DNA from: Nanobdellota archaeon
GTDB taxonomy: Archaea; Nanobdellota; Nanobdellia; Woesearchaeales; GW2011-AR9
DNA length: 48,543 bases
Assembly: GCA_018812355.1 (NCBI GenBank)
Contig: JAHJDQ010000182.1
Coordinates: 1 to 48,543, forward strand
Direction: 5' to 3'
Shown: piece by piece, positions 5,452-12,141 of the stretch
How positions within the stretch are numbered: the stretch's first letter is position 1
Layout of the letters: each line of letters starts with the position of its first letter
Translations under genes and position numbers: made by a program
Notes under the pieces: model-generated
The model's input: the letters and a program-made list of their open reading frames with translations, nothing else
The model's database searches: none
What the model was told of the DNA's origin: nothing

Positions 5452-6894
5452 ATGGAAGAACAAAAACATGAAATCAAACTAAAAAAAATTAATGAGTATA
5501 CATGGGAAATTCCTCAAACTGGTCAGATGAAGGTTCCTATGAGAATCTACGCTTCTGAAAAACTATTAGAGAAGATGAAAGATGATCGTACTTTAAGGCA
5601 AGCTAGTCAGATTGCCGTTCTTCCTGGAATACAACAGTATGGCTGTGTCATGCCGGATGGGCATGAAGGTTATGGTTTCCCCATTGGCGGAGTAGCAGCA
5701 TTAGATGTTGAAACAGGCGGTATTTCTCCTGGCGGAATTGGTTTTGATATTAATTGCGGTGTTCGATTATTAGCTACTAACCTCAAGAAAGAACAAATCA
5801 CTCCCAAAGTTAAACAATTACTTGATTCCTTATTCAAAAGTGTTCCTGCTGGATTAGGCAGCAGCAACATTACGGTTACTAAAGAAATTTTAGATGAAGT
5901 TCTTGATAAGGGCGCCAAGTGGGCTGTCGAGAATGGTTATGGTAATGAAGATGATCTCGCTAATTGCGAATCTAATGGTTGCATGAAGACTGCAGATGCT
6001 AGTAGTGTCTCTGACAAAGCTAAAAATCGAGGCAGAAAACAACTTGCTACTCTTGGCTCTGGAAATCATTTCTTAGAAATTCAGTATGTCGACGAAATCT
6101 TTGATAAAGAGATAGCAAAAGCTTTCGGCTTTACTGAACCTGGTCAAGTTGTTATCATGATTCACTGCGGTAGTAGAGGACTTGGCCATCAAGTTTGTTC
6201 AGATTACTTAAGAGAAATGGAACGAACCTTTCCCGAACTGTTACAAAAACTTCCCGATCGACAATTAATTTATGCTCCCGCGGGAACAAAATTATGTACA
6301 GATTATTTGCAGGCTATGTCTGCTGCAGCTAATTTTGCTTGGTGTAACCGTCATATTATTGGCCATCAAACCAGAACGGCTTTCAAGAAAGTATTTCCTG
6401 AAGTGGAAATGAAAACTGTCTATGATGTTGCCCATAACATTTGTAAAGTTGAAGAGCACGAAATCAATGGAGAAATGAAAAAAGTTTATCTGCATCGTAA
6501 AGGTGCAACAAGAGCCTTCCCACCTGGACATCCTGAATTATCAGAAACGTATCAAAAAACCGGCCAGCCAATTTTACTTCCAGGTAGTATGGGCACCGCT
6601 TCTTACGTTCTTGTTGGCACGGAAGAAGGAATGAAAACTACTTTCGGTTCTACTGCTCATGGTGCTGGAAGAGTGATGAGTAGGCATGCCGCTTTACAGC
6701 AATTTAGAGGAGAGCAGGTCAAGAAAGATTTGGAAGCACAAGGCATTTCTTTGAAATCAGCTTCCTGGAAAGGTGTGGCAGAAGAAGCACCTGGTGTGTA
6801 TAAAGACATTGAAGAAGTTGCTAAGGTATCACACGAAGTAGGCATTGGCAGGAAAGTTGTTCGGGTTAAACCAATGGGATGTATCAAAGGATGA
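5452..6894 (+). CDS. rtcB: RNA-splicing ligase RtcB (3'-phosphate/5'-hydroxyl RNA ligase)
   Basis: Full-length 480 aa with hallmark segments PDGHEGYGFPIGGV, GFDINCGVR, GSGNHF, HCGSRGLGHQV, GSMGTASY, STAHGAGR. Confidence 0.95.
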   Translation: MEEQKHEIKLKKINEYTWEIPQTGQMKVPMRIYASEKLLEKMKDDRTLRQASQIAVLPGIQQYGCVMPDGHEGYGFPIGGVAALDVETGGISPGGIGFDINCGVRLLATNLKKEQITPKVKQLLDSLFKSVPAGLGSSNITVTKEILDEVLDKGAKWAVENGYGNEDDLANCESNGCMKTADASSVSDKAKNRGRKQLATLGSGNHFLEIQYVDEIFDKEIAKAFGFTEPGQVVIMIHCGSRGLGHQVCSDYLREMERTFPELLQKLPDRQLIYAPAGTKLCTDYLQAMSAAANFAWCNRHIIGHQTRTAFKKVFPEVEMKTVYDVAHNICKVEEHEINGEMKKVYLHRKGATRAFPPGHPELSETYQKTGQPILLPGSMGTASYVLVGTEEGMKTTFGSTAHGAGRVMSRHAALQQFRGEQVKKDLEAQGISLKSASWKGVAEEAPGVYKDIEEVAKVSHEVGIGRKVVRVKPMGCIKG

Positions 6895-7304
6895 AATCAT
6901 ACGAATTCCTCCCGCATACGGCGGATACAAAAATCAGAGCGTACGGAAAGACGTTAGCAGAAGCGTTCATCAACGCAGCTCTTGCCACAACAGACACTAT
7001 TACTGATCACAAAAAGATAAAACCAACCACAAAAAAAACAATCAATGTTGAATCAGAAAACAAAGAAGCTCTCTTATACGATTTCTTGGAACAATTTCTT
7101 ATTCTCTTAGATTCAGAAAGCTTCTTATTAAGCGAAGTAAAAGAATTAAAAATTACTAACAATAAACTAACCGCAACCATTGTTGGCGATACTCATCCAG
7201 AAAATTATGAAATTAAAACCCATGTTAAAGCAATCACTTACCAAGAGATGATCATTGAAGAAAAAAAAGATCAAATCATGATTCAATTCATTCTCGACAT
7301 CTAA
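6891..7304 (+). CDS. Archease (RtcB activator)
   Basis: MKSYEFLPHTADTKIRAYGKTLAEAF is the conserved archease N-terminus. I placed the start at the ATG overlapping the rtcB stop (ATGA at 6891-6894). Confidence 0.9.
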   Translation: MKSYEFLPHTADTKIRAYGKTLAEAFINAALATTDTITDHKKIKPTTKKTINVESENKEALLYDFLEQFLILLDSESFLLSEVKELKITNNKLTATIVGDTHPENYEIKTHVKAITYQEMIIEEKKDQIMIQFILDI

Positions 7305-7306
7305 AA

Positions 7307-8014
7307 ATGGCTAAACAAAGTTTTACTAAATTTTGGGACGCTTTAACCAATAAAAAGGAAGCGCAAGCACGAGCGGAATTAGTTCTTAAAGCGATTAATA
7401 AATATCACAAAAACTCTAAAACTATTCTTGAACTAGGCACTGGTATTGGTGCAGTCTTGGTTAACTTTCCAAAACAGTATCAACTTTCCGGGCTTGACAT
7501 TAAGTTAGAATATGTTGATATCTGTAGAAAAAAGATTCCGAAAGGCAATTTTTATGTTATGAGCATGCATAATTTCAAACTTAAAAATAAATTTGAGATC
7601 ATTTTCTCTGTCTATGATTCGATTAATTTCTTAAAAAAATTTAATCATTGGAAATCAACTTTTAAACAAGTAGAGATACATCTCAACAAAGATGGTTTGT
7701 TTATTTTCGATATGTACACTTTGAAAGCACTTAAAGATTTTAAAAGTAAACCAGCAAACATCTCTAAATTTCATCTTGGTTACATCACTGATAAACCTAC
7801 AATTAAAAGAAACACACTTATCTGGAATTTTAACGTCTTTGAACAATTAAAAAATGATCAATATCAACTTCATGAATATAAATTTAAAGAATCAATTTAC
7901 TCGATTAAGAAAGTTAACAAAGCACTTAGTAAACATTTTCAAATTCTTGATATGAAATCTCTAGAAGAAGGTAGACGAGTTCTCATTGTTTGTCGAAAGA
8001 AATATAAACATTAA
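7307..8014 (+). CDS. Class I SAM-dependent methyltransferase
   Basis: Motif I ILELGTGIGAV and post-I LSGLDI. It starts 2 nt after the archease stop. Confidence 0.7.
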   Translation: MAKQSFTKFWDALTNKKEAQARAELVLKAINKYHKNSKTILELGTGIGAVLVNFPKQYQLSGLDIKLEYVDICRKKIPKGNFYVMSMHNFKLKNKFEIIFSVYDSINFLKKFNHWKSTFKQVEIHLNKDGLFIFDMYTLKALKDFKSKPANISKFHLGYITDKPTIKRNTLIWNFNVFEQLKNDQYQLHEYKFKESIYSIKKVNKALSKHFQILDMKSLEEGRRVLIVCRKKYKH

Positions 8015-9155: not shown

Positions 9156-10649
9156 ATGACAGATATAGCCCAATATTTTCATGATGTACTTGGAGACGTA
9201 ATCTATTCCTACCAGCAGTTAATTCAGTACAGTGAAAAAAGCTTGGATCAACAAATAAGTCTTAAAAGAAGAAAAAGTGGAGTAAAGAGAAAAGGAAAAA
9301 GGAAAAGAAACGGGAAAAGTGGAAAAATCAATACATGGAGAGCAACTTCAAAAACGATCAGACCGAAAAGAAAACTAGATGTAATTATTGGGGAATATGA
9401 ATCCCTTAATCCTGAGTCGACCGAAGAATTTTTTACATCTGCAGCTGGAATTTGTAGAAGATTTGAAGAGATTGTTCCTAGCAGTGAAGATATTGAAAAA
9501 CTAGTCAATCGAGCCATTAAAGATTTTGATAATGAGCCAGTTATGGAAGCACAGAAGAAATCACGTTTTTGGTTAAGGCCAATGGCTGTTCTTGGCGGAA
9601 CAATGGGTGCTGGAGCAATCACTCTTGGAATTATGGCCACTGACGGAGAGTGGGCAGCTTACACTGCAGCAGCTCTCTATTCGGTTTCAGCGGCTACAGC
9701 GATGTTAACTAGAAAAAAAGATAGGGAATCCACTCGTTGGCTTACTTACACTACTCTTCTAGTCGGTTCTGGTATGTTGAGATATCTGGAATCTCCTGAT
9801 GATTTCAAGCCAATGCAAGGCTTACTAATGATCCTCCAAAACTTTGCTATGCCAGGAATATATAGATCCATCTACTTGAGTTACAAAAAGATTCAGCTCA
9901 AAGACAAAATTGCCACTGTCAGAAAAGTATCTAAGTTCATTAATGATGATTCGTTAAGACTTGGGGTTGCCTTAAGTGAAGCTCATCGAGGATTGCGTTA
10001 CATTAATGCTGTTTGTCAAAACGAAGACAGATCGTCGCAAGATTTCCAGCCACAATTGGATCAACTATCAACAACATTACTTGATTATTTTAGAGGAAAA
10101 GCTACCCATGAAGAAATTACTGAGGCCAGAATACAATATGTTCCTCCAGGTAAAACAAGCCAAAAGATAAGAAGAGTGCAATCTCAAGTATTAGAACCAG
10201 TAGTAAAGAAAATTGGTTACACTACTGAAGAACACGCACAATTAAGATCTCAACGGAAAGCCGAAGCTCAAGAATGTATTAAATTAGTTCAAGAAGAGGA
10301 AACAGGAACACACACCTCTTCAAAAGAAGAAGAAATGTTGGATGTTATTTACAGTAGTGGCTTAGCTTCAGCTGACAGGATTGCAGGATTTGAAGGATCA
10401 AATTTACGAGATTTAATTGAAACTAAGTTTAATGATGGTTACAAAGGAAAATTAATTCGGAATAAAAATAGAGGTCAGTACTTATTAAGAAGAGTGTGGA
10501 ATAAACACGGATTAGAAAATGGTACAAAAGTGTTTAAACTTCAACCAAGAGGTAGTCTAAGAGCTTTATATATTGAAGAAAATGGTTCTGTAAGAATTTT
10601 AGAAGTACTTACTCATCCAGAGTATGATGCTTTACATAAAAAAAGTTAA
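9156..10649 (+). CDS. Hypothetical membrane protein with a K/R-rich tract and a RelE/ParE-like C-terminal domain
   Basis: 497 aa. Basic run KRRKSGVKRKGKRKRNGKSGK; hydrophobic segments (MAVLGGTMGAGAITLGIMA, AAYTAAALYSVSAATAML). The C-terminus FKLQPRGSLRALYIEENGSVRILEVLTHPEYD matches the core pattern of RelE/ParE toxins. Confidence 0.6.
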   Translation: MTDIAQYFHDVLGDVIYSYQQLIQYSEKSLDQQISLKRRKSGVKRKGKRKRNGKSGKINTWRATSKTIRPKRKLDVIIGEYESLNPESTEEFFTSAAGICRRFEEIVPSSEDIEKLVNRAIKDFDNEPVMEAQKKSRFWLRPMAVLGGTMGAGAITLGIMATDGEWAAYTAAALYSVSAATAMLTRKKDRESTRWLTYTTLLVGSGMLRYLESPDDFKPMQGLLMILQNFAMPGIYRSIYLSYKKIQLKDKIATVRKVSKFINDDSLRLGVALSEAHRGLRYINAVCQNEDRSSQDFQPQLDQLSTTLLDYFRGKATHEEITEARIQYVPPGKTSQKIRRVQSQVLEPVVKKIGYTTEEHAQLRSQRKAEAQECIKLVQEEETGTHTSSKEEEMLDVIYSSGLASADRIAGFEGSNLRDLIETKFNDGYKGKLIRNKNRGQYLLRRVWNKHGLENGTKVFKLQPRGSLRALYIEENGSVRILEVLTHPEYDALHKKS

Positions 10650-10724: not shown

Positions 10725-10913
10725 CCCCTCTTAGTTCAGTGGCTAGAACGCTCGGCTGTGTGGCTAAAGGTTTACCTTTAATCAGGTCAGAGATAAATTC
10801 ACTACCGGACAGAGCATTTGGCTTTGTATGAAAAGTAGATAGCCGGGACCGAGAGATCTATTAAGACTCGAAATCCCCGGTTCGAAATTCGAACGAAAGT
10901 CCGGGAGAGGGGA
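10725..10913 (+). tRNA. tRNA, anticodon read as GUG (His, tentative), with three interruptions: anticodon loop, variable loop 45/46 and T-loop 59/60
   Basis: - Acceptor CCCCTCT/AGAGGGG, D-arm GTTC-AGTGGCTA-GAAC, anticodon stem CTCGG (10751-55)/CCGAG (10849-53), loop CTGTG.
- An insert of about 86 nt at roughly 10761-10847.
- A 17-nt insert at 10856-10872 with two 3-nt bulges (AGA, AAA) separated by the 4-bp helix CGAG/CTCG.
- T-stem CCCGG/CCGGG with a 13-nt insert at 10887-10899.
- The mature length would be 73 nt. Confidence 0.65.
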
Positions 10914-10916
10914 TTT
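10893..10916 (+). repeat. Direct repeat copy 1 (ACGAAAGTCCGGGAGAGGGGATTT), covering the 3' BHB half plus the 3' exon of the tRNA
   Basis: Identical 24-mer recurs at 11672-11695. Confidence 0.9.
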
Positions 10917-10947
10917 GAAGGAAGGTGTGCGTTCTCACACTTCCTTC
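10917..10947. terminator. Hairpin between the tRNA 3' end and the convergent LAGLIDADG gene stop
   Basis: GAAGGAAGGTGTG / CACACTTCCTTC: 12 bp with one bulged G and a 6-nt loop. It overlaps the minus-strand stop codon at 10935-10937. Confidence 0.4.
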
Positions 10948-11579
10948 ACATATTTTAATAATTTTTTCTGTTTTCTTATACAGTAAAATCCAATTTTATG
11001 ATGAAAATTTGATATGTCTTTAATAGTTAATCCGTAAACATTTCTCTTACAACCAAAACCAACGACAATTACACTATCAAAATTAAAATTTTGTAGAAGT
11101 TCTTGTATCTCTTTTAATCCTTTTAAATTAATTGAATACAAACGAAGAATTGCAGTTTTTCCATAAGGAATGACACTTCCTTCGTCATCAAAAAGTGCTT
11201 TTAAAAATTCTTTTTGGATGTTTTTTGAATTATTTAAAATTTGTTTAGGAACAAACCAAACTGCGGACGCATATTCACAGTAACTCTTTAAATCTTCATA
11301 TATTAATTTTGATCTAAATCTTAGATAAGGTAAAGGAAGACCGGTTTTTCCTGAAGGTTTAAACGCTATTGTTATTTTGTATCCATAAACATCATTGAAA
11401 TCTTTAACGAATTGATTTAACAATTCAGAATCTATGTTATCGTATTTAATGTTGTAATCCGTCCGACATTTATACACACAACCATCACCTATAAGATGAG
11501 CTATCAACCTAGCTTTAGCATTAGTTAACCTCTCAAAGCCTGGTTTCAAGTTTTTTATTCTCATTTTAATCATTTCCAA
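10935..11579 (-). CDS. Double-motif LAGLIDADG homing endonuclease
   Basis: Two LAGLIDADG motifs: LIAHLIGDGCV and FLKALFDDEGSV. On its own strand a TATA-like GTTTATATAGG lies about 45 nt upstream. An 8-bp hairpin CCAATCTT/AAGATTGG sits in the leader. Confidence 0.85.
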   Translation of the reverse strand: MEMIKMRIKNLKPGFERLTNAKARLIAHLIGDGCVYKCRTDYNIKYDNIDSELLNQFVKDFNDVYGYKITIAFKPSGKTGLPLPYLRFRSKLIYEDLKSYCEYASAVWFVPKQILNNSKNIQKEFLKALFDDEGSVIPYGKTAILRLYSINLKGLKEIQELLQNFNFDSVIVVGFGCKRNVYGLTIKDISNFHHKIGFYCIRKQKKLLKYVKEV

Positions 11580-11671
11580 TCTTACACTAAGTTAAAGATT
11601 GGAGTGATTTTTATGAATTACTCCTATATAAACTCTATCCAGACTTGTCGAGTGGGTGTGTGGGTGCTAAT

Positions 11672-11695
11672 ACGAAAGTCCGGGAGAGGGGATTT
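11672..11695 (+). repeat. Direct repeat copy 2 (orphan copy of the tRNA 3' exon plus 3' BHB half)
   Basis: Identical to 10893-10916. It is followed by the T-rich tract TTCTCTTTTT. No tRNA 5' part lies upstream of it. Confidence 0.9.
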
Positions 11696-11826: not shown

Positions 11827-11930
11827 GCCCTGGTAGTGTAGTTCGGCCTAGCATGATGCCCTGTCACGGCATCGACCCGGGTTCAAAATGAGGTTGGTTA
11901 ACAATCACACTGAAAGTCCCGGCCAGGGCG
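11827..11930 (+). tRNA. tRNA-Asp (GUC) with a 29-nt BHB intron in the T-loop (59/60; 11888-11916)
   Basis: - GCCCTGG/CCAGGGC acceptor, anticodon arm ATGCC-CTGTCAC-GGCAT, T-stem CCGGG/CCCGG.
- T-loop TTCA pairs with intronic TGAA, flanked by 3-nt bulges AAA and AGT, plus an 8-bp inner helix.
- Splicing gives TTCAAAT and a 75-nt tRNA. Confidence 0.9.
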
Positions 11931-11998: not shown

Positions 11999-12141
11999 GG
12001 GCCGGTAGCTCAGTTTGGTAGAGCACTTGACTTTTAAGTCAAGACAAAAACGAGCAAAAGCTTGTTTTTCTTCCCCTGGAAGAGATCAAGTGGTCGTGGG
12101 TTCAAAAGCTTAAAAAAAGCCTGAAAGTCCCTCTCGGCCCG
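11999..12141 (+). tRNA. tRNA-Lys (UUU) with a canonical 37/38 intron (12037-12084) and a T-loop 59/60 intron (12107-12127)
   Basis: - GGGCCGG/TCGGCCC acceptor (G7-U66), anticodon stem CTTGA/TCAAG, loop CTTTTA+A.
- Anticodon BHB: CTTT/GAAG helix with bulges TAA and AGA.
- T-loop BHB: TTCA/TGAA with bulges AAA and AGT and an inner helix GCTT/AAGC.
- One U-U mismatch in the T-stem. Mature length 74 nt. Confidence 0.85.

Follow-up and report, generated by a model that had tools for sequence, protein, structure and literature searches.

Several described systems resemble parts of the locus reported here. In fungal mitochondria (Allomyces atp6), mobile endonuclease ORFs bring a replacement 3' end to the gene they enter and the displaced end stays downstream. 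Phage 'collaborative homing' pairs a free-standing endonuclease with an ORF-less intron, there a group I intron in a phage protein gene. Homing endonuclease genes (HEGs) in archaeal bulge-helix-bulge (BHB) introns have previously been described for rRNA genes, and none was found for tRNA genes in the literature searched; in a 2018 survey of DPANN archaea, LAGLIDADG genes were confined to group I introns of rRNA (PMC6125680). tRNA genes are also known integration targets (PMC4090602), and transposition of tRNA introns has been reported in the Thermoproteales (Fujishima 2010, as summarised in PMC4090602), where the reviewed mechanism is given as unknown and presumed to act at the DNA level (PMC4090602).

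Here, a LAGLIDADG gene is described at the 3' boundary of a tRNA-Tyr gene within a 48,543-nt stretch of DNA, the whole of which is called the window below; related loci and lineages carry L numbers. The preferred reading, to which a probability of roughly 0.6 is given, is that a free-standing 755-bp HEG cassette has inserted at the tRNA-Tyr 3' boundary with a 24-bp duplication of the tRNA end, that tRNA-Tyr is the home of this endonuclease family, and that the family homes in the manner proposed below.

Like I-DmoI and the other enzymes of archaeal rRNA BHB introns, the window protein is monomeric, carries two motifs, has about 200 residues and is matched to them by Foldseek, and its relatives in L013 and L014 are encoded within a BHB-type archaeal intron; unlike that class, the host gene is tRNA-Tyr (position 35/36) and not rRNA, and the window gene lies antisense and beyond the intron, at the tRNA 3' boundary. 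As in collaborative homing, a free-standing endonuclease gene stands beside a gene with an ORF-less intron and the two co-occur across lineages (counts below), but here a tRNA carries the intron, which is of the archaeal BHB type, the enzyme is of the LAGLIDADG family, the end of the target gene is duplicated around the cassette, and cutting and intron protection in the window system are proposed by analogy only. The arrangement also recalls the attL and attR sites of archaeal viruses and plasmids, since tRNA 3'-end repeats bracket the insert and the upstream copy keeps the tRNA intact, yet the window insert is only 755 bp, has no integrase, begins its repeat at a point that varies by lineage and always has the same endonuclease as cargo. 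With Allomyces atp6 the locus shares an endonuclease gene in the duplicated 3' part of a host gene that is functional without splicing; it differs in its archaeal tRNA host and in that the copies match in most lineages, instead of being foreign and resident. Finally, the intron-rich tRNA genes, the non-canonical BHB introns and the homologous introns at a shared position of different tRNAs (T-loop introns in L133) parallel the Thermoproteales, where no agent is known, whereas here one tRNA intron has an endonuclease gene physically linked to it.

The tRNA-Tyr gene is interrupted four times, and its parts are as follows (a slash within a motif marks a splice junction).

10725-10913, + strand: tRNA-Tyr(GUA) gene with four BHB-type introns (in-silico splicing and ARAGORN)
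10725-10759, 10791-10792, 10848-10855, 10873-10886 and 10900-10913, + strand: tRNA-Tyr exons, from the spliced product
10760-10790, + strand: intron A, 31 nt, position 35/36, ORF-less (short lead, hairpin, GGTC, AG)
10793-10847, + strand: intron B, 55 nt, at the canonical 37/38 position (spliced product validated by ARAGORN)
10856-10872, + strand: intron C, 17 nt, position 45/46 in the variable region (helix of CGAG with CTCG, bulges AG/A and AA/A)
10887-10899, + strand: intron D, 13 nt, position 59/60 in the T-loop (BHB-like, cccgg TTCG [AA/A] ... CGAA [AG/T] ccggg)

Both ARAGORN and Rfam miss this gene in the raw DNA: ARAGORN found only a mis-ended tRNA-Asp, and Rfam, at gathering and E-value thresholds, returned no tRNA-Tyr and only weak partial tRNA matches. 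Once spliced in silico, the 73-mer with CCA added is called tRNA-Tyr(gta) by ARAGORN with a perfect cloverleaf, and it shows C1-G72 and A73, which are typical of archaeal tRNA-Tyr (PMC5370408). The anticodon had been a puzzle, solved because an extra intron was recognised at 35/36. In the BHB of this intron A, GGCT (positions 30-33) pairs with GGTC, the bulges being GT/G and AG/A, and without it the sequence reads CTGTAG/ATAAATTCA..., matching the canonical pre-tRNA-Tyr of L007. Removal of intron C leaves the variable loop AGATC, which is that of the relatives L052 and L053. A His anticodon (GTG) and several other splice schemes were tried and ruled out, since orthologues differ freely in the two bases that follow CTGT.

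Exactly two copies of the 24-mer ACGAAAGTCCGGGAGAGGGGATTT exist in the window, both on the + strand, and there is no third site with up to three mismatches (shuffle expectation 0). A second MAG assembly also has both copies, the proximal in L004 and the distal in L042, so an assembly artefact is unlikely. The copies and the 755 bp that separate them are laid out as follows.

10893-10916, + strand: proximal repeat copy; takes in 7 nt from the end of intron D, then the 3' exon, discriminator and TTT; completes the functional tRNA
10917-10947, arms 10913-10924 and 10940-10951, + strand: GC-rich hairpin right after tRNA-Tyr (inverted-repeat scan)
10935-11564, - strand: LAGLIDADG homing-endonuclease gene (HEG), 209 aa, monomeric and two-motif; the ATG start matches the MRIK of homologues
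Arms 11575-11588 and 11590-11603, - strand: hairpin in the presumed HEG 5' leader (inverted-repeat scan)
11625-11632, - strand: TATA-box-like TTTATATA, read from the sequence; position conserved in L006, L049 and L140
11643-11656, - strand: conserved motif preceding the TATA box; reads ACTTGTCGAGTGGG on the + strand and CCCACTCGACAAGT in the HEG sense
11672-11695, + strand: distal repeat copy, aligning with the tRNA-Tyr 3' end and downstream flank of the HEG-free L133
11693-11708, + strand: T-rich tract TTTTTCTCTTTTT, following the distal copy

The sequence-only reading had placed the two 24-mers at these positions, the first beginning 1 nt before the CGAA strand of the T-loop BHB, with only an antisense double-motif LAGLIDADG gene, its TATA box and leader hairpin and a terminator-like hairpin in between and a T-rich tract beyond; each of these features was recovered here, the start of the repeat by motif geometry. 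The HEG is the sole ORF between the copies, and it could be extended upstream to a TTG at 11579. The insert holds neither a transposase ORF nor a tyrosine or serine recombinase gene, and no terminal inverted repeats were found at its ends. The TATA-like element is presumed, from its sequence and position, to be the HEG promoter, and the motif at 11643-11656 recurs in L006, L008, L010, L011, L045, L049, L058, L082 and L140. The 3' arm of the GC-rich hairpin contains the HEG stop and last codons on the opposite strand, and homologous hairpins follow the tRNA in L045, L049, L053 and L140, regardless of HEG orientation. This hairpin was ruled out as a cassette-specific feature: the HEG-free L130 and L137 also have one after the tRNA.

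Most likely, the distal copy duplicates the tRNA-Tyr 3' end without being functional, and it is still joined to the original downstream flank. The TTTTTCTCTTTTT tract is taken as the trailer or terminator that tRNA-Tyr had originally; in the other lineages each distal copy is followed by a T-rich tract, and so is the tRNA in L133.

The HEG product matches Pfam PF14528 (LAGLIDADG_3; E 3e-10, 40.7 bits against a cut-off of 22.5) and has both LAGLIDADG motifs, LIGDG (D27) and FDDEG (D126, D127, E128; G129). The residues D27 and D126-D127-E128-G129 are invariant among 33 aligned homologues and 48 locus-derived sequences, with a few exceptions at neighbouring positions. A search of PDB sequences with the protein gave no match, and comparison of folds was needed: the AlphaFold model (pLDDT 94.9, pTM 0.91) has two repeats of a helix and four strands and shows the pseudo-dimeric alpha-beta-beta-alpha-beta-beta-alpha fold. 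Foldseek matched it at probability 1.00 to I-DmoI, PI-PfuI and the TliVMA endonuclease domain, with E-values of 1e-9 to 1e-10 for I-DmoI and the intein domains; for I-DmoI the E-value is about 1e-9 and the TM-score 0.60-0.75 at a sequence identity of about 22%. We infer cleavage activity, a target site and homing for the window enzyme.

More than 100 homologues of the HEG were found in DPANN archaea, and among 70 related loci there are 52 whose HEG adjoins or sits within a tRNA-Tyr gene. In the Micr- and Aenigmatarchaeota the HEG is located inside the tRNA-Tyr 35/36 intron. Intron-borne HEGs are in sense orientation: in L013 and L014 the 35/36 intron is about 644-650 nt and the spliced products are tRNA-Tyr, L088 has an intron-borne HEG too, and L094 was placed in the same class by position, unspliced. 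In the Woesearchaeota the HEG is free-standing at the tRNA-Tyr 3' boundary, usually with an ORF-less 35/36 intron remaining. The same cassette of about 0.75 kb occupies one and the same spot in more than 35 lineages. The window conforms to the arrangement of the Woesearchaeota, its ORF lying outside the tRNA, downstream and antisense. Within clades, HEG position and orientation look largely vertically inherited. Pseudogenes or truncated copies occur in L015, L016, L078, L095, L101 and L102, as expected for a selfish gene. No relatives were found in 2.9 million viral contigs or in plasmids, and the phage search gave a single bacteriophage match at 30% identity.

Intron A is homologous to the HEG-holding intron of L013 and L014, and the window HEG lies about 150 bp downstream of it. 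For the 35/36 intron the same BHB can be formed in 32 of 32 lineages; shuffled sequences give one in about 12% of cases, and L012 and L045 show compensatory changes. Counted by lineage, the intron occurs in 28 of 37 where the HEG is linked and in 0 of 4 close relatives that have no HEG (hypergeometric p of about 0.007, a value that ignores phylogeny). Nine HEG-linked lineages are without the intron and their catalytic motifs are still intact, which weakens the proposed 35/36 target. Loss of catalytic residues in HEGs whose tRNA is without the intron was ruled out, as the residues are retained.

A comparison of related genomes with and without the unit had been suggested as a check on insertion, and it bears the insertion out. 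Among the nearest relatives by RpoB'', L133 (87% identical), L130, L137 and L139 are HEG-free and L140 (82%) is occupied. In L133, which is an empty site, the tRNA-Tyr end passes directly into sequence that can be aligned to the window's distal copy and right flank. For the window itself, an empty site would read ...TTCGAACGAAAGTCCGGGAGAGGGGATTTTTCTCTTTTTACC, and the occupied junctions are 10916/10917 and 11671/11672. Such sporadic presence and absence among close relatives, together with the decayed copies, is the pattern of a homing endonuclease. In the window's own population no cassette-free allele was seen, as 9 of 9 near-identical contigs that reach the spot carry the cassette, and none of the contig breaks close to the locus falls at a repeat boundary.

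Duplication of the tRNA-Tyr end is recurrent, having occurred in about ten independent lineages over 9-29 nt, with a variable start and with the HEG in either orientation. Against 200 shuffles it is significant in L064 (29/29), L052 (22/23), L007 (21/22), L087 (18/19), L009 (14/14), L053 (13/13) and L058 (12/12); by eye, L082 has about 25/26 and L049 9 nt. The left junction always falls 0-3 nt past the discriminator, and the start of the repeat ranges from -26 to about -5 relative to it, leaving no fixed core. Distal copies begin in the T-stem or variable loop in L064, L007, L082 and L052, and those of L009 and L053 have no BHB partner. L140, L045 and L006 have the same arrangement with no distal copy at all. 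The distal copy of L082 has its own T-stem with a compensatory 49:65 pair and therefore comes from another allele. Where the HEG is sense-oriented, the distal fragment directly follows its stop codon. Identity between sister HEGs is no more than 67-82%, while the distal copy is perfect and matched to its lineage.

Under the preferred reading, the cassette consists of the hairpin, the minus-strand HEG and its own presumed promoter, set exactly at the tRNA-Tyr(GUA) 3' boundary; the proximal copy is the working tRNA 3' end and the distal copy is a leftover attached to the original T-rich trailer and the tRNA-Asp promoter region. The enzyme would cut element-free tRNA-Tyr alleles, most likely at the uninterrupted 35/36 site, and repair off the occupied allele would then copy the small intron together with the downstream cassette, in parallel with phage collaborative homing. 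For the role and origin of the duplication we infer that the distal tRNA fragment may act as a right-hand homology arm in conserved tRNA sequence, renewed on entry into a naive allele; the persistence of a perfect distal copy beside diverged sister HEGs is accounted for only hypothetically. The duplication cannot itself protect the occupied allele, because an arrangement of the form X-R-cassette-R-Y keeps all short stretches of the original end. Recombination between the two copies could delete the cassette cleanly and recreate the target.

More tentatively, and at somewhat less than even odds, this HEG family may drive the tRNA-Tyr 35/36 intron through the DPANN archaea, the gene having left the intron for the 3' boundary in the Woesearchaeota, where it would cooperate with an ORF-less intron and carry a renewable tRNA-end homology arm. 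If this is true, archaeal tRNA BHB introns can be mobilised by homing endonucleases, and the window holds a splicing-independent, intron-like selfish element. The family offers intron-borne tRNA-Tyr copies, free-standing copies with an ORF-less intron and recurrent duplication of the target end, and the free-standing form would be an archaeal counterpart of collaborative homing. This gives a testable lead on the gain, spread and movement of archaeal tRNA introns, one that needs a single small protein and a few DNA substrates.

Of the other readings, an unlikely one that nevertheless fits several observations is that the distal copy is the remnant 3' exon of an older second tRNA-Tyr with an intronic HEG, left by tandem duplication and subsequent 5' decay without any insertion at the tRNA end. 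Sense-oriented intron-borne HEGs do exist, sense-class HEGs end right at the distal fragment, the variable start of the distal copy is what erosion would give, and the distal copy of L082 is a complete T-arm of a different allele. However, perfect lineage-matched copies (24/24 in the window, 29/29 in L064) are too young for an ancient decaying pseudogene, the window HEG is antisense to the distal copy, and no trace of an anticodon-side 3' exon or an intron arm was found beside any distal copy.

It is also improbable, a little more so, that the host has domesticated the LAGLIDADG protein, for instance to give maturase-like help to the heavily interrupted pre-tRNA-Tyr or to regulate it, and that the repeat is a by-product of local rearrangement or gene conversion and does not reflect present mobility. 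A 206-aa protein this strongly conserved in more than 100 lineages could also have a host function; its length is very well conserved too, the arrangement is coherent within clades, the gene constantly adjoins tRNA-Tyr, and LAGLIDADG maturases exist, bI3 being among the Foldseek matches. Maturases commonly lose the catalytic acidic residues, but here these are invariant; close relatives manage without the HEG, pseudogenised copies exist, and to our knowledge BHB splicing requires no maturase.

An insertion by an integrase, with the repeats as attL and attR and the 755 bp as the decayed remnant of a larger virus or plasmid that carried the HEG, is very unlikely. Direct repeats that run from the T-loop to the tRNA 3' end and flank an insert are the classic signature of an integrase, and relatives show duplicated tRNA-Lys ends without any ORF. 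Against this, the HEG is the sole content of the cassette, the same small unit recurs at the same place in more than 35 lineages, the repeat start wanders without a fixed core, relatives are absent from the viral contigs and plasmids searched, and, as the intron-borne relatives show, it is the endonuclease itself that is bound up with tRNA-Tyr. The sequence-only reading had offered an attL/attR-like footprint of an insertion that rebuilt the tRNA gene, noting that no integrase was present. An insertion that leaves the gene intact is upheld by L133 and by the recurrence in about ten lineages, as is the lack of an integrase, but its att-like nature is contradicted by the shifting repeat start and the missing recombinase. 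Mobility most likely comes from the homing endonuclease, not from an integrase.

The second proposal of that reading, a 792-nt T-loop intron carrying the antisense HEG, with the distal copy as a working alternative 3' exon and position 59 joined to 11679, is highly improbable. Its geometry is sound: the distal copy exactly reproduces the 3' half of the T-loop BHB, with identical helix and bulges, so that either 10887-10899 or 10887-11678 could be the intron, and a brute-force BHB scan over 1 kb confirmed both solutions, the scan being otherwise too noisy for use. Introns at 59/60 are moreover the rule in this lineage (tRNA-Asp and tRNA-Lys in the window, about 95 nt in L133), and the 24/24 identity of the copies requires explaining. 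Splicing to the distal copy is nevertheless unsupported, as the proximal copy gives a perfect tRNA-Tyr and would be available first in transcription. Archaeal RNA polymerase terminates at oligo-T, and the + strand between the copies has seven runs of at least five T, the first 46 nt past the tRNA, against two on the HEG sense strand. The distal copy is furthermore absent or reduced to 9 nt in four sister lineages (L140, L045, L006 and L049), and in six others it begins in the T-stem or variable loop or has no BHB partner.

Split tRNA genes are known from Nanoarchaeum and Caldivirga, and the TATA-like element that precedes the distal copy by about 40 nt, with the T-run after that copy, might hint at a 3'-half gene or small RNA of its own, transcribed from a symmetric TATA element and trans-joined to a 5' half encoded elsewhere, but this is scarcely credible given that no complement of the would-be leader was found in the 48.5-kb window, that the distal copy is unconserved in sister lineages and that a complete tRNA-Tyr is encoded 0.8 kb upstream.

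In total the window has three tRNAs with seven introns, of which standard finders detected one tRNA, wrongly delimited, and the failure of such tools on these genes matters for the annotation of DPANN genomes. The canonical intron of tRNA-Tyr contains motifs suggestive of box C/D or a K-turn. The downstream tRNA-Asp and tRNA-Lys share the T-loop design of intron D, and in L133 introns of about 95 nt sit at the T-loop position, with homologous T-loop introns in different tRNAs.

The window (48.5 kb, 34% G+C) contains exactly two copies of the 24-mer ACGAAAGTCCGGGAGAGGGGATTT, one at 10893-10916, the working 3' end of tRNA-Tyr (the proximal copy), and one at 11672-11695 (the distal copy). The window holds no near matches, none being expected by chance, and a second MAG assembly also contains both copies. 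The 755 bp between them carry one minus-strand ORF (10935-11564, 209 aa), a free-standing homing-endonuclease gene (HEG) whose product matches Pfam LAGLIDADG_3 with both catalytic motifs. The hairpins and T-rich tract described in the sequence-only reading are present, the repeat does begin 1 nt before the CGAA strand of the T-loop bulge-helix-bulge (BHB) motif, and the same motif can be formed with the distal copy.

The tRNA-Tyr gene was not detected in the window by ARAGORN or Rfam. It carries C1-G72 and A73, which form the tyrosine identity set of archaea (PMC5370408); a naive reading of the anticodon loop gives GTG, a puzzle that was solved by recognising an additional intron at 35/36. Splicing of four BHB-type introns in silico yields a 73-mer that is a perfect tRNA-Tyr(GUA).

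Introns of the window's tRNA-Tyr gene
10760-10790, intron A, position 35/36, 31 nt, BHB-type
10793-10847, intron B, canonical position 37/38, 55 nt, BHB-type
10856-10872, intron C, position 45/46, 17 nt, BHB-type
10887-10899, intron D, position 59/60 (T-loop), 13 nt, BHB-type

Intron A lacks an ORF here. A GGYC/AGCC box pairs 4/4 with positions 30-33, and two bases lie between the box and A36 G37; this BHB solution is available in 32/32 de-duplicated lineages versus ~12% of shuffles, with compensatory changes in L012 and L045 (L-numbers denote related loci from other genomes and metagenomes). The two bases 3' of CTGT vary freely between tRNA-Tyr orthologues. Only two exon bases, A36 G37 (10791-10792), separate introns A and B of the gene (10725-10913), and its four introns compare with up to three reviewed for crenarchaeal tRNA genes (PMC4090602).

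More than 100 homologues of the HEG protein (~206 aa, 45-67% identical) were found, from DPANN archaea, and the acidic residues of both LAGLIDADG motifs are invariant in the family members aligned. A PDB sequence search found nothing, while the confident AlphaFold model (pLDDT 94.9) resembles I-DmoI, which is encoded by a BHB intron in archaeal rRNA, and also intein endonuclease domains. Of the loci fetched (35 from genomes, 80 from metagenomes), 70 had a close homologue, and in 52 of these 70 tRNA-Tyr lies beside or around the HEG, the others being mostly short contigs. The HEG is found immediately downstream on the same strand at ~30 loci, where the tRNA is followed at once by a GC hairpin and a T-run; immediately downstream on the opposite strand in the window, L006, L045, L049, L050-52, L061, L067/68 and L140; upstream of tRNA-Tyr in L017, L092 and L056/57; and in the hairpin loop of intron A, on the same strand, in L013 and L088 (both of Micrarchaeota type), L014 (Aenigmatarchaeota) and L094. 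In-silico splicing of L013 and L014 yields tRNA-Tyr(gta), so in some phyla the HEG product is a true intron-encoded endonuclease of a ~650-nt tRNA BHB intron. In a neighbour-joining tree the arrangements cluster largely by clade, with the sense-oriented L053/55 nested inside the antisense clade.

Duplication of the tRNA end recurs across the family. The last 33 nt of each tRNA were compared with the 285 nt beyond the HEG; for the significant repeats, 0/200 shuffles reached the score and reverse-complement controls scored 5-8.

Significant tRNA-end repeats beyond the HEG (matches/length)
L064, 29/29
Window, 24/24
L052 (antisense), 22/23
L007, 21/22
L087, 18/19
L009, 14/14
L053, 13/13
L058, 12/12

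By eye, repeats of ~25/26 and 9 nt were also found in L082 and L049, while ~25 further lineages have no distal copy. The left junction of the insert, or cassette, always lies 0-3 nt past the discriminator, the distal copy starts variably (-26 to about -5) and is followed each time by a T-run, and in the sense class the HEG stop codon abuts or overlaps it. Every distal copy agrees with the acceptor sequence of its own lineage; the HEGs of L009 and L064 are 82% identical and their flanks unrelated, but at both loci the distal copy suits the resident tRNA. The distal copy of L082 possesses a T-stem of its own, in which the 49:65 pair is compensatory, and therefore came from another allele. Separately, tRNA-Lys 3' ends are duplicated with no ORF between in L140 (3127-3200, 22 nt, CTTCCGGCCCGCTCATTTTTGC, ~50 nt apart) and L049 (~2460-2370, reverse strand, 10 nt), so such duplications also occur apart from the endonuclease cassette.

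Among the hosts closest by RpoB'', tblastn found no HEG in L130 (88% identical), L133 (87%), L137 (86%) or L139 (83%), and L140 (82%) carries one arranged as in the window. All four HEG-free tRNA-Tyr genes read CTGTAGA and thus lack intron A, which is present in 28/37 HEG-linked lineages versus 0/4 HEG-free ones (hypergeometric p ~0.007 by our own arithmetic, without phylogenetic correction, and with L006 taken as intron-less). An empty site was identified in L133, where the tRNA-Tyr 3' end (...GGGAGGGGGGACTTCTTTTCTT) is joined straight to the promoter region of tRNA-Asp, which is conserved. Aligned to the window, the joined stretch matches the distal copy and right flank, so the distal copy occupies the place of the tRNA end in the empty site, and the window equals that site plus 779 bp. 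The window's own population showed no cassette polymorphism. In HEG-free L137 (2290-2590), a hairpin and T-run follow tRNA-Tyr, then ~300 nt of unassigned sequence precede the tRNA-Asp promoter region; this may be what a lost cassette left behind.

Possibly the distal copy is the remnant of a decayed second gene copy. A 792-nt T-loop intron spliced to the distal copy, as the sequence-only reading offered, is possible on paper given the BHB geometry, beyond which it found no support: the proximal exon suffices for tRNA-Tyr, seven oligo-T runs lie on the plus strand between the copies versus two on the HEG coding strand, sister lineages lack the distal exon, and elsewhere the distal copy begins where no BHB can form. 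A split-tRNA half would need a partner, and none was found within the window. Of the other earlier proposal, an att-like footprint of insertion, the insertion at the tRNA end is supported by the L133 empty site, and the insert indeed holds no integrase; an integrase origin is unlikely, as there is neither recombinase nor fixed core, dozens of lineages share this 0.75-kb cargo and searches of viral contigs and plasmids found no relatives. With terminal inverted repeats and transposase both absent, a transposon is excluded.

The mechanism proposed as most likely is homing into tRNA-Tyr. The putative endonuclease would cut tRNA-Tyr alleles without the element, the best candidate target being the uninterrupted 35/36 site, where the intron-borne relatives are inserted. 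Repair from an occupied allele would then copy intron A and, by co-conversion, the cassette ~150 bp downstream, a logic analogous to the collaborative homing reported for F-CphI and a cyanophage psbA intron (PMC6083498). The distal fragment could act as a right-hand homology arm within conserved tRNA sequence; a repair strand annealing there would renew it from the recipient's own tRNA end, which would explain young, lineage-matched copies. Recombination between the two copies might cleanly delete the cassette and recreate the target. The proposal has weak points, in that the duplication itself could not protect an occupied allele, nine HEG-linked lineages with intact catalytic motifs lack intron A, and the population of the window showed no variation in the cassette; domestication of the HEG protein is possible.

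LAGLIDADG endonucleases, endonucleases borne by archaeal BHB introns, free-standing endonucleases cooperating with ORF-less introns and duplicated tRNA ends around inserted DNA are all known, while no description of their combination was found in the literature searched. A DPANN survey placed LAGLIDADG genes solely in rRNA group I introns (PMC6125680), and a review of tRNA introns mentions neither homing nor intron ORFs and gives the transposition mechanism as unknown (PMC4090602). The system is clearly of interest, since it opens the mobility of archaeal tRNA introns to experiment.

In this contig of a DPANN ('Nanoarchaeota'/Woesearchaeota) MAG, the locus is flanked by an RtcB-archease cluster and an RNA polymerase operon (rpoH, split rpoB, rpoA). 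The tRNA-splicing ligase RtcB, archease and a methyltransferase are encoded at 5452-8014, 3-5 kb upstream of the three intron-rich tRNAs, a neighbourhood also present in L130. Directly upstream of tRNA-Tyr, a 497-aa ORF (9156-10649) has no Pfam match and exact copies confined to the same population. Downstream, tRNA-Asp(GTC) (11827-11930; exons 11827-11887, 11917-11930) and tRNA-Lys(TTT) (11999-12141; exons 11999-12036, 12085-12106, 12128-12141, with a 48-nt canonical intron) each contain a 59/60 intron in the T-loop that follows the BHB design seen in tRNA-Tyr; on raw DNA ARAGORN mis-ended the former and missed the latter, and both were cleanly called after in-silico splicing. In HEG-free L133 (2402-3190), homologous ~95-nt T-loop introns (AAGCCCATTACGCTGGGCGAGCG...) occupy tRNA-Tyr, tRNA-Asp and tRNA-Lys, one intron family having spread across three genes at a shared position. 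The canonical tRNA-Tyr intron has, close to its 3' end, a GGATGA/GTATGA motif with a UGA-containing partner (~10828-10836 in the window, and in many tRNA-Tyr loci), which resembles a kink-turn or box C/D element. A further motif precedes the HEG.

Motif upstream of the HEG
11643-11656, minus-strand sense, CCCACTCGACAAGT, ~10 nt upstream of the presumed HEG TATA box

Many family members share this conserved motif, whichever way the HEG is oriented (L006, L008, L010, L011, L045, L049, L058, L082, L140), and it is a candidate operator or element boundary.
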